Source of the DNA: a virus
Taxonomy: Duplodnaviria; Heunggongvirae; Uroviricota; Caudoviricetes
IMG/VR virus record: IMGVR_UViG_2718218104_000006
Reading direction: 5' to 3' (one strand)
Length of the DNA: 58,725 nt
In this document: in pieces, positions 33,001 through 36,000 of the stretch
Position numbering within the stretch: the stretch's first letter is position 1
Layout: each line of letters opens with the position of its first letter
Made by a program: the position numbers

Positions 33001-36000
33001 TCATCGTCACGTCGTACCATATCCCGGGCAGGGTTGAAGGCGTTGGCCGCCACCTCCACGGTCGGGGCCCGAATGGTGTAGCCCGCCGCCTGCCGCCAGT
33101 TCAGTAACAGCGCCGTCATCATGATCCCCGCGGCCAGCGTGGACTTACTGTTTTTCTTGGGGATAAGGATAAACACTTCCTTGATATGGCGAACACCGGT
33201 CTGCGCATCGTAGGAGCCAAACAGGGCCGCCACCAGGTCAAACACCCACGGTGCACAGGACTCCCCGAATGTCGGGCTACCCGGTGCATCCACAATCCGC
33301 AGTTGTTTAAAAATCGCCAGGGCATGTGCGGCCTGGTCCGGATAAATCGGATCCGGAATAATCGACAGCCCCTTTTTCAGGCGCTCTGCCCAGTCCGGGC
33401 AGGCCGTGCTCCACACAGGTATCATCCGTTGCCCTCATTATCATTATTCACCACCAGGCGGGGTGGTGGTGGCACCGCAAAACGGTTAGCCGCTTTTTTC
33501 GCCGCGTCACCTTTTGCCGATTTTTTACCGGCATCCCCTTTTTTGTGGTGCGTGAACTGCGCCAGCTTATAAGCCGCATCCAGCGCCAGCCTGGGGTCGG
33601 TATTAATGTTCTCCACCAGAAGACGCCCCATCGCTTTCACCGGATCGGGAAGACCGTCCTCCATATACTCAATACCAGGAGATATCACCACGGGCGGTGG
33701 CATCTCCGGATTGTTTTCGTCCGGCTGTGGTATTGCAGCCGCCTCACGGCGACGGGGTTTATCCTCCTGCTCTGATTTTTTCTGCCGGTAAACAGGAACC
33801 TCATCCACCTCCACCGTCTCGCACTGTTTACGGGCTATAAACGCAAGCACCTCCGGATCTTTTGCCAGCTGCGAGCCTTTAACCCTGGCTGTCTTCGCCG
33901 AATAACCAGCGGCAATGGCTGACGCTGTTTTGTTTTTCCCGGACATGAGCGCCAGCGCAAATTTTCGTTTTTGCGTTGTCAGCACAGCCTCCTCCCGGGT
34001 CCAGAACGCACTCAGCCGGGTATGGTTCAGCCCATTTTTCCCGGCATCTCATGCCGCAAATGTTAACTGCTGCCTGGTTAACATTTGCTGAAAAAGCCAG
34101 TTAACATTTTTTCCGCACAACAAACTGAATAATAAAGATAAAAACCGCAAAAATGCCCGGACAGCCAGTTAACATGTTAACTGCCCTGAAACGGGAATTT
34201 TTTCTCTGCGTGAGAGGGGGCGCGGTGTCCGGAGCGATCGTTTTTTTCGCCGGATGATCCCCCCCCCGGGGCGGGTCACAGTCCGATGATATCGTCTGCC
34301 CTGCCATGACCTCCGGACACCTCCGGCAGCGTCGGGTCCGGCATACCACCCGCCGCTTCACGAGCAGACTTTTGTCGATGGCATTCGGTACAGAGCGTCC
34401 AGAGATTCGTCTCCTCATTACCACCACCGAACTGAAGTGCAATTCGGTGATCGAGTTCACTGTCACAGAGGTCAACCACACGACCACAGAGACAGCACTG
34501 CCCGGCATCCCTGAGCCAGATATGACGCTTGAGGGAAACACGTGCACTGCCACTGACACGACGCTGTTCACCCTTCAGAATATTCACCCGCCGGGTGTTC
34601 AGAGTTTTGATTCTGCCCGGTAACGTACGAAGCACAGCCATGTAAAATCCTCGCCATATAGCTTGTCACCAGAGGAAAGAAAATGTCATCGAAAAACCGG
34701 CCCCGCAGAACAACAACCCGCAACATCCGATTTCCAAACCAGATGATTGAACAAATTAACATCGCTCTTGACCAGAAAGGTTCAGAAAATTTTTCTGCGT
34801 GGGTCATTGAATCTTGCCGCCGGGAGCTGGCAGCAGACATAAAATATGCCCGTCAGTTGACTATAAAAAAGAATGATACACAGTATGCTCTGCGATGGCT
34901 GTTCATATAACTATTTCTTTATATTGCTGAATTTATAAAAACTCACAGACATTAGCTGTATTAATTCCGAATTGAAATAATCAGCCATATAGAATAAAAA
35001 TAAAGCATAACAATAATAATCTTCTACCCAATCAGTACATTACTGCTGTGACTCCAACACGGCAGTTTTTTTATTGAACAGATTCCAGTTTCTTCCACCA
35101 TCGCACCGGACGGGCGACCATGAGGGGAGAACGCCGCGCTCCGTTTACGCGGTAAACCCCGGTGTGTATCGTTTTTGATTATCCCCGCACACTCTCGCAG
35201 AGGAGTCTCCCTGTCGGGCTGCGGTCTCTGTTAATGCAGGAATACGGCGACGATACGGCGCATCAGCAAAACTTAGTTCAGGCACTGAGTGCGGATATAG
35301 TCCTGTGCCCCTTCCAGCTGCTTCTGCATTGTCATCAACCGTTCTCTGAGGATGAAATAATCCCGTTCAGCGGTGTCTGCCAGTCGGGGGCCGGTTGCAT
35401 TATCCACGCCGGAGGTGCCGGTGGCTTCACGCACGGTACCGGAGCAGGTGGCGTTGATCCGCAGGCGCTTACGACCAGCGGCAACATCAGCACGCAGAGT
35501 TTCATTTTCAGCTCTCGCATCGGCTAACTCCCTCGAGTATTTTGCATCGAGCGCAGCAACATCACGCTGGCGCACCTGCATGTCAGTAATGGTGGCATTC
35601 GCCTGTTCCAGCTCTCTGGCTTTTTTATCGCGCTGCGCTTTGTAGGTGAGCGCGTTGTCACGGTAATGGTTTGTTGCCAGCCACAGCGCACCATAGCCAA
35701 CCGCCAGGACAATAATCACCACACACAGAACACGGTTCATCTCTCTTTCACCCCACCAGTCCCGATAACGTCAGGACTCGCCAGGCGGTGGAAAAGAAAA
35801 TGGCAACCAGCATGACTAAAAATGAAATGCCGACAAGTACACAGAGGCTCTTCACCAGCGTTATGAGTTTATCTGATATCATTAGCCACCCCATCAATCC
35901 GCCTTTGTTATTTTCCCTTTGCCTGTATCAGCCAGGACAAAATCAATCAGCATATTCGCTTCATTTACCAGCGTACGGATTTTTGATACATGCGCGGCTT

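Follow-up and report, generated by a model that had tools for sequence, protein, structure and literature searches.

The window analysed here is the whole 58,725-nucleotide stretch of IMG/VR record IMGVR_UViG_2718218104_000006 (Caudoviricetes), and the element under study occupies the interval between its genes for an HNH endonuclease and the small terminase subunit (TerS). The open reading frames (ORFs) of the window and their Pfam matches give the minus-strand order HNH, cos, terS, terL. The HNH gene (34276–34641, minus strand; Pfam HNH, E 7e-7; stop codon TGA at 34278–34276) is named HNH endonuclease in RefSeq phage records. terS (33422–33985, minus strand) matches Pfam Terminase_2 (E 1.5e-8), and terL (31764–33425, minus strand) matches TerL_ATPase and TerL_nuclease, encoding an HK97-family large terminase whose sole PDB match by sequence is HK97 TerL (6z6d, E 1e-9). 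The region is 97–99% identical to the Shiga toxin (Stx) phages BP-4795, 2851 and 1717 and to many Stx1a/Stx2c phages, and the cos region is found in about 1,280 of 5,426 complete Escherichia coli genomes. The element is the cos packaging site of a Shiga-toxin-type prophage, and positions 34056–34267, read on the minus strand, probably constitute a complete cos site of the HK97 type, HNH-assisted and with 3′ overhangs (a probability of roughly three in four).

Gene order and predicted cut site

The order HNH–cos–terS–terL is that of HK97, in which cos is cut to a 10-nt 3′ overhang and cleavage is stimulated by the HNH protein gp74 (PMC11331095). Both a cos located between the HNH gene and terS–terL and a large terminase of the HK97 family are present in the window; a TerS homologous to HK97 gp1 with a single A-tract site at +15 to +29 is absent. 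A small DUF3950 gene (34683–34910, plus strand), divergent from the HNH gene, separates the lysis genes from the packaging module and adjoins HNH in relatives too.

The position of the cut is provided by the genome ends of homologues. The Stx1 phage Lys8385Vzw, 98% identical here, is the single record whose ends fall inside the query, starting with CTCACGCAGAG, i.e. CTCACGCAGAGAAAAAATT, and ending in ...CGCCCCCCCT, i.e. ...GGACACCGCCCCCCCT. Using PhageTerm on virion reads, its authors described a cos phage having 3′ cohesive ends, with CGCCCCCCCT as the cos sequence at the genome end (PMC7946995). By homology to this mapped cos, the predicted cosN of the window lies at 34215–34224, where cleavage would yield a 10-nt 3′ overhang that reads CGCGCCCCCT on the minus strand (AGGGGGCGCG on the plus strand), with putative nicks at 34215|34214 (minus strand) and 34224|34225 (plus strand). 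Independent support for this position comes from Pseudomonas phage D3, whose record ends ...GGACACCGCGCCCCCA at the base homologous to the predicted cut; the right end of D3 is near-identical to the upstream half of the window core, and its left end is unrelated. The cut falls within a core, GGACACCGCGCCCCCT|CTCACGCAGAGAAAAAATTCCC (34193–34230, minus strand), conserved across Enterobacterales prophages and satellites and containing an A6 tract at 34198–34203 (+12 to +17). The assignment of the interval to a cos region in the initial annotation is borne out. The end of the phi330 record (PV189401) inside terS was dismissed as a terminus, the ends of that record being arbitrary.

The initial annotation had placed the cleavage site itself elsewhere, in a C/G tract whose range, 34259–34275, was given exactly: a C9 run (34259–34267) followed by GGGGCGGG (34268–34275). 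The tract is G/C-rich like other overhangs of the class, and GGGGCGGG in reverse complement, CCCGCCCC, agrees with the core of the C-rich SfI cos overhang TGCCCGCCCC (PMC3636060). However, the mapped Lys8385Vzw termini fall at another C-rich 10-mer, separated from the C9 run by 34 bp, so the proposed site was off by about 40 bp, although the cut is still inside the interval that had been flagged. Furthermore, relatives conserve GGACACCGCGCCCCCT but not CCCGCCCC: in them this minus-strand spacer between the HNH stop codon and the homopolymer is replaced by CCCGACCC, CCAGACCC, AACCA and others. In SfV, D3, HK97 and phiE125, a G-rich box likewise stands 40–42 nt upstream of the true end. Cleavage within the tract is very improbable, and the likeness to the SfI overhang was dropped as support for it, given the lack of conservation in the tract and the different position of the mapped ends.

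GTTAAC repeats and the small terminase

Between HNH and terS, both on the minus strand, five GTTAAC motifs are present as initially described, at 34062, 34077, 34100, 34168 and 34176. The count over the whole window is unremarkable (15 against 10.5 expected), but five copies within 120 bp compare with 0.02 expected (by the Poisson distribution, P is about 3e-11, rising to about 1e-8 once scanning of the window is corrected for). All five fit the longer motif YRGTTAACAT(N)T, of which the 10-mer YRGTTAACAT has no other occurrence in the window; GTTAACAT occurs a single time elsewhere, at 2602. A second GTTAAC pair, TGTTAACTGGTTAAC at 54294–54308 in the early region, has the same 8-bp spacing, holds the exact 10-mer TGTTAACTGG also found in the cos array, and lies about 55 bp upstream of an ORF starting at 54365; this pair may be a chance occurrence or another binding site.

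The five sites span +32 to +157 from the cut, arranged as a palindromic pair, a T-tract spacer, one single site and an inverted pair. The proximal predicted TerS site is a perfect 18-bp palindrome, CAGTTAACATGTTAACTG (34166–34183, both strands; +32 to +49), formed by two overlapping half-sites. Distal predicted site 3, CAGTTAACATTT, lies at 34098–34109 on the plus strand (+106 to +117), and distal predicted sites 1 and 2 form the inverted repeat GCAAATGTTAAC-N9-GTTAACATTTGC (34056–34088, both strands; +127 to +159) with 12-nt arms at 34056–34067 and 34077–34088. Between the proximal and distal sites is an A/T-rich spacer with T-tracts, CATTTTTGCGGTTTTTATCTTTATTATTCAGTTTGTTG (34110–34165, minus strand), whose T-tracts and ATTCA-N-TGTT element are retained in variants having different repeats, and which is likely to act as a bend.

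TerS possesses an N-terminal helix-turn-helix domain (residues 1–56) with the recognition helix at residues 33–41 (T32-A-R-V35-K-G-S-Q-L). In the AlphaFold2 model, residues 1–50 have a predicted local distance difference test score above 90, and helices are formed by residues 19–25 and 33–41. Because a search of the PDB with the TerS sequence gave sub-threshold matches only, a fold comparison was needed for this domain: Foldseek matches the TerS N-terminus to the DNA-binding domain of the SF6 small terminase (4zc3/2cmp, template modelling (TM) score 0.84/0.81), with a root-mean-square deviation of 1.6 Å for the match at TM 0.84.

The five sites are unchanged in 64 distinct close relatives, but the entire cos–terS interval hardly varies among these, which leaves motifs and spacers indistinguishable by per-column conservation. 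Among E. coli relatives with the long arrangement, a TerS with KTARVKG is accompanied by GTTAAC at all positions (the window, P0014, P0033, P0010 and P0022), and a TerS with KSARCKG by GTTTAY/RTAAAC at all five positions (P0021, P0032, P0004 and P0012). At the KSARCKG loci the sites read TATAAACATGTTTATA, ATGTTTATACC and TGTTTAC-N-GTAAACA, with both arms of each palindrome altered together. The nicking core stays constant while the repeats switch together with the recognition helix. Predictions made from the TerS protein before the DNA was retrieved were correct in four of four cases, one of these loci being truncated to a single visible site. P0004 serves as a control, since its TerS is 89% identical overall to that of the window and yet has the KSARCKG helix and GTTTAY sites.

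Other TerS types extend this relationship. In satellites resembling phage-inducible chromosomal islands (PICIs), TerS (KTARVKGWQL) is the sole packaging gene and AAGTTACAC repeats lie beside the same G-run and core; the gene orders are AlpA–cos–TerS in L173 and primase ... cos–TerS–capsid homologue in L174 and L175. The recognition helix of the satellite TerS differs, and its C-terminal half resembles that of the phage TerS. A phage lineage with the TerS helix KTASQQGSKL has AAAAGTTAAAG repeats. In total, six TerS types show covariation between motif and recognition helix; the residues involved, 32, 35 and 38, lie at or on this helix. L174 additionally has a gene for a protein of the Phage_capsid family, which recalls Ccm of the cos-type Staphylococcus aureus pathogenicity islands. 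The KTASQQGSKL lineage (L196, L208, L251 and L290, all from IMG/VR) shares the cos core GGACACCGCCCCCCATCTCA and has two AAAAGTTAAAG repeats just upstream of terS, with similar copies, GAAAAGTTAAAGG and CAAAAGTTAAAAC, within the terS coding sequence.

The concerted motif changes, the covariation with the recognition helix and the helix-turn-helix fold make TerS binding by far the most economical reading of the repeats, which are very probably docking sites of the small terminase, as the initial annotation had suggested. An operator array, at which another phage or host regulator would control transcription into terS and terL, is unlikely. Palindromic repeats are typical of repressors, and linkage could explain the covariation with TerS; however, the sole promoter-like match in the array, a weak sigma-70-like sequence at 34078–34107, is on the plus strand, opposite to the genes. 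In the satellites L173–L175, moreover, TerS is the only candidate binder adjoining the repeats, being the sole packaging gene, and the array, just past cosN, is placed like lambda cosB and the HK97 TerS site. The perfect 12-nt and 9-nt inverted repeats could also form RNA or DNA hairpins in the late transcript, serving as an attenuator, terminator or processing site. This is hardly credible, as a terminator scan of the cos interval gave no match, one member of the array is lone and non-palindromic yet changes like the rest, and the satellites have direct repeats that are unable to pair.

The origin of the proximal site becomes apparent in more distant phages. Twenty Enterobacterales prophages of a short type, with a TerS 32–48% identical to that of the window, retain the G-run and the core, and their terS begins about 38 nt past the cut. 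Each has one palindrome, GTWAACRTGTTAAC, with the terS start codon at its centre. The recurrence of the motifs foreseen in the initial annotation therefore holds for this one palindrome at the terS start, which more distant phages with a homologous TerS keep, but not for the five-copy array, which they do not have. Judged by sequence homology, the window palindrome at 34166–34183 is the counterpart of this ancestral palindrome, and the approximately 190 bp that separate it from the current terS start are specific to the window lineage. A 24-codon ORF, MLTGCPGIFAVFIFIIQFVVRKKC (34104–34178, minus strand), starts at the central ATG of the palindrome (34176–34178) and is what is left of the start codon of the ancestral terS (MLT...); in relatives, the equivalent ORFs vary in length and sequence.

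These relics raise the question of whether the GTTAAC copies themselves are functionless duplicates of the ancestral terS 5′ end, left behind by the insertion of about 190 bp, ACATGTTAACAG being simply a start codon followed by Leu and Thr codons. The homology of the proximal palindrome to the ancestral Shine–Dalgarno and start region, the 24-codon ORF at its central ATG and the lack of an array in the short-type relatives all agree with such an origin. Relics would, however, be expected to decay independently, yet the five copies are invariant in the 64 close sequences, and in another lineage they switch together to GTTTAY with the dyad symmetry kept. Furthermore, the ancestral copy was already a conserved palindrome, with the TTA Leu codon invariant in 15 of 16 distinct terS starts. 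Functionless duplication is accordingly regarded as quite improbable, and small-terminase binding is retained as the reading of the repeats.

The G-run upstream of the cut

On the gene strand the C9 homopolymer is a G9 run (34259–34267, minus strand; −53 to −45), a conserved upstream cos element whose 3′ end lies 44 nt before the predicted cut. A total of 139 distinct related cos cores were gathered from IMG/VR and genomes, and the G-run is present in all 139, with a length of 5–13 nt (mode 7–8) and a 3′ end fixed 26–29 nt ahead of GGACACC. HK97 and HK022 have G9 then ATCA 42 nt before their right genome ends, and comparable G-rich boxes precede the ends of SfV (GGGGAGGGGCGGG, 41 nt), D3 (GGGGTGGGGCGGG, 40 nt) and phiE125 (GGGGAGGGGGG, 42 nt). 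Given its occurrence in every core and the similar boxes in these five phages, the G-run is, as far as sequence conservation tells, a deeply conserved part of HK97-type cos sites. A G-rich box about 40–44 nt upstream of the cut, found in the window at 44 nt, can be regarded as an empirical hallmark arising from this analysis and not as a published criterion. No mention of the G-run was found in the HK97 packaging literature searched, a search that did not extend to the older D3, SfV and HK97 genome papers.

The initial annotation had marked the homopolymer as a potential slippage hotspot. The variation in length fits slippage, which would alter no reading frame because the run is intergenic; a universally conserved intergenic cos element with a fixed 3′ boundary is, at the same time, no accident. 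This fixed boundary suggests that the distance to the cut, rather than the length of the run, is what matters. Located upstream of the nick, on the DNA packaged last, the G-run is perhaps cosQ-like, occupying the same relative position as lambda cosQ.

Two further observations concern the G-run. In several O157 PPompW prophages, the IS110-family element ISEc20 is inserted exactly in the run (L180 2761–4219, LC567822; equivalent to window 34263/34264), and beyond it the HNH and lysis genes are gone, with tRNAs and Q directly next. IS110-family elements may favour the G-run as a target, and this insertion should disable packaging. In addition, a 156-aa ORF (34101–34571, minus strand) runs in another frame over HNH and crosses the G-run and cosN, being labelled hypothetical or "putative secreted" in some phage records (PV189401, FM180578). 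It is almost certainly spurious, because relatives differ in the length of its internal G-run by numbers not divisible by three; knowing where the genome is cut corrects such spurious ORF annotation across the site.

Packaging model and comparison with known cos sites

A working model can be proposed from these elements. The helix-turn-helix domains of an oligomeric TerS would occupy the five GTTAAC sites from +32 to +157, with the bent spacer looped or wrapped so that one TerS oligomer contacts both the proximal and the distal sites; the physical binding and the bending are here deduced. TerL and HNH would thereby be placed on the core GGACACCGCGCCCCCT|CTCACGCAGAGAAAAAATT and would introduce staggered nicks 10 bp apart, leaving the 10-nt 3′ overhang CGCGCCCCCT (34224→34215); which nuclease cuts which strand is assigned provisionally. 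Packaging would then run towards terS and terL. When the translocating motor reaches the next cos, it could be helped to stop and cut by the G-run (−53 to −45) in combination with TerS bound on the downstream side.

Several points weigh against this interpretation. The cut position is taken from the ends of homologues, and the role of the G-run is deduced purely from conservation. The repeats adjoin terS, so that the covariation could partly reflect co-inheritance of one recombination block. Since the only mapped TerS site of HK97 is a single 15-bp A-tract site, the conserved A6 tract at +12 to +17 could be the real or the main TerS contact. Furthermore, the distal three sites may be dispensable, because the distant relatives have just one palindrome, at the terS start codon, in place of an array. 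Finally, no match to the integration host factor (IHF) consensus WATCAANNNNTTR with at most one mismatch was found in 33986–34275, and the spacer is for this reason proposed only as a bend.

Taken further, the data allow a tentative joint reading, possible but somewhat short of probable, in which an HK97-type cos comprises an ancient nicking and termination module and an exchangeable TerS-specificity module with a simple, readable code, exploited by satellites. The first module would consist of the G-rich box, the interval of 40–44 bp and the C-rich 3′ overhang, common to HK97, D3, SfV, phiE125 and the Stx phages, and would presumably be paired with TerL and HNH. The second would consist of the TerS helix-turn-helix and the repeat array, with T32/V35 paired to GTTAAC, S32/C35 to GTTTAY, W38 to GTTACAC and TASQQ to GTTAAAG. 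The PICI-like satellites would keep the helper-type nicking module and bring their own TerS and repeats, and cos phages with 3′ overhangs would have in the G-run their long-missing equivalent of cosQ.

The phage group (BP-4795, 2851 and Stx1a/Stx2c phages) is one that carries Shiga toxin genes, and the cut site and packaging signals define the DNA that can be mobilised by these phages and by the satellites sharing the nicking core. The natural pairs of TerS and site form a set for studying how small terminases read DNA, and the conserved G-rich box is a candidate for the signal that ends packaging in HK97-type phages, which currently serve as a structural model system. The cos position of the group is already published; as far as searched, no earlier description was found of the array of predicted TerS sites, of the way it covaries with the recognition helix or of how general the G-rich box is. 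The site is nonetheless an ordinary, well-behaved cos site, and the current understanding is not overturned.

Lys8385Vzw, BP-4795 and 2851 belong to the same phage group, being 97–99% identical across the region, and the literature searched describes just the 10-nt cos sequence for this group, with no description of TerS sites or of the G-run. D3 shares with the window an end almost identical to the upstream half of the core and, 40 nt upstream, a G-rich box. On the downstream side of the cut, neither D3 nor SfV is related to the window, both having other TerS types and lacking GTTAAC repeats. The TerS of the window and G1P of SPP1/SF6 are both of the Terminase_2 family with a helix-turn-helix fold (4zc3/2cmp, TM 0.81–0.84, about 30% identity). 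G1P recognises several repeated sites, the pac boxes, as is predicted for the TerS of the window at its own repeats, and SPP1 and SF6 are headful (pac) phages with no HNH and no defined cohesive ends.

In lambda, cos is composed of cosQ, cosN and cosB (R3, I1, R2, R1), with a bend between the sites for the helix-turn-helix of its small terminase, spanning about 200 bp next to the small-terminase gene. The window site has the same three parts (an upstream element, a nick site and a downstream repeat array with a likely bend), is also about 200 bp long and adjoins the small-terminase gene, with the TerS helix-turn-helix predicted to bind a motif repeated on the side of the nick that faces the terminase genes. 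The overhang of lambda is a 5′ one of 12 nt, and lambda has the Nu1 protein, the R sequence and a true IHF site but no HNH. By comparison, the window has conserved T-tracts between its repeats in place of an IHF site, a TerS family unrelated to Nu1 with repeats unrelated to the R sequence, and a 10-nt 3′ overhang by homology, and its G-run has no sequence likeness to cosQ.

Relative to HK97, the window shares the nicking module and differs in TerS and its sites. The HK97 TerS is unrelated, gp1 having no Terminase_2 match, and its only mapped site is one 15-bp A-tract site at +15 to +29 (PMC11331095), whereas five repeated sites out to +157 are predicted in the window; HK97 gp74 and the window HNH protein have no significant similarity beyond the motif. 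Both sites lie between HNH and terS–terL, and both have a 10-nt 3′ overhang (that of the window by homology). In each, G9 then ATCA precedes the cut by about 42–44 nt and an A/T tract follows it closely, and the TerL proteins are homologous.

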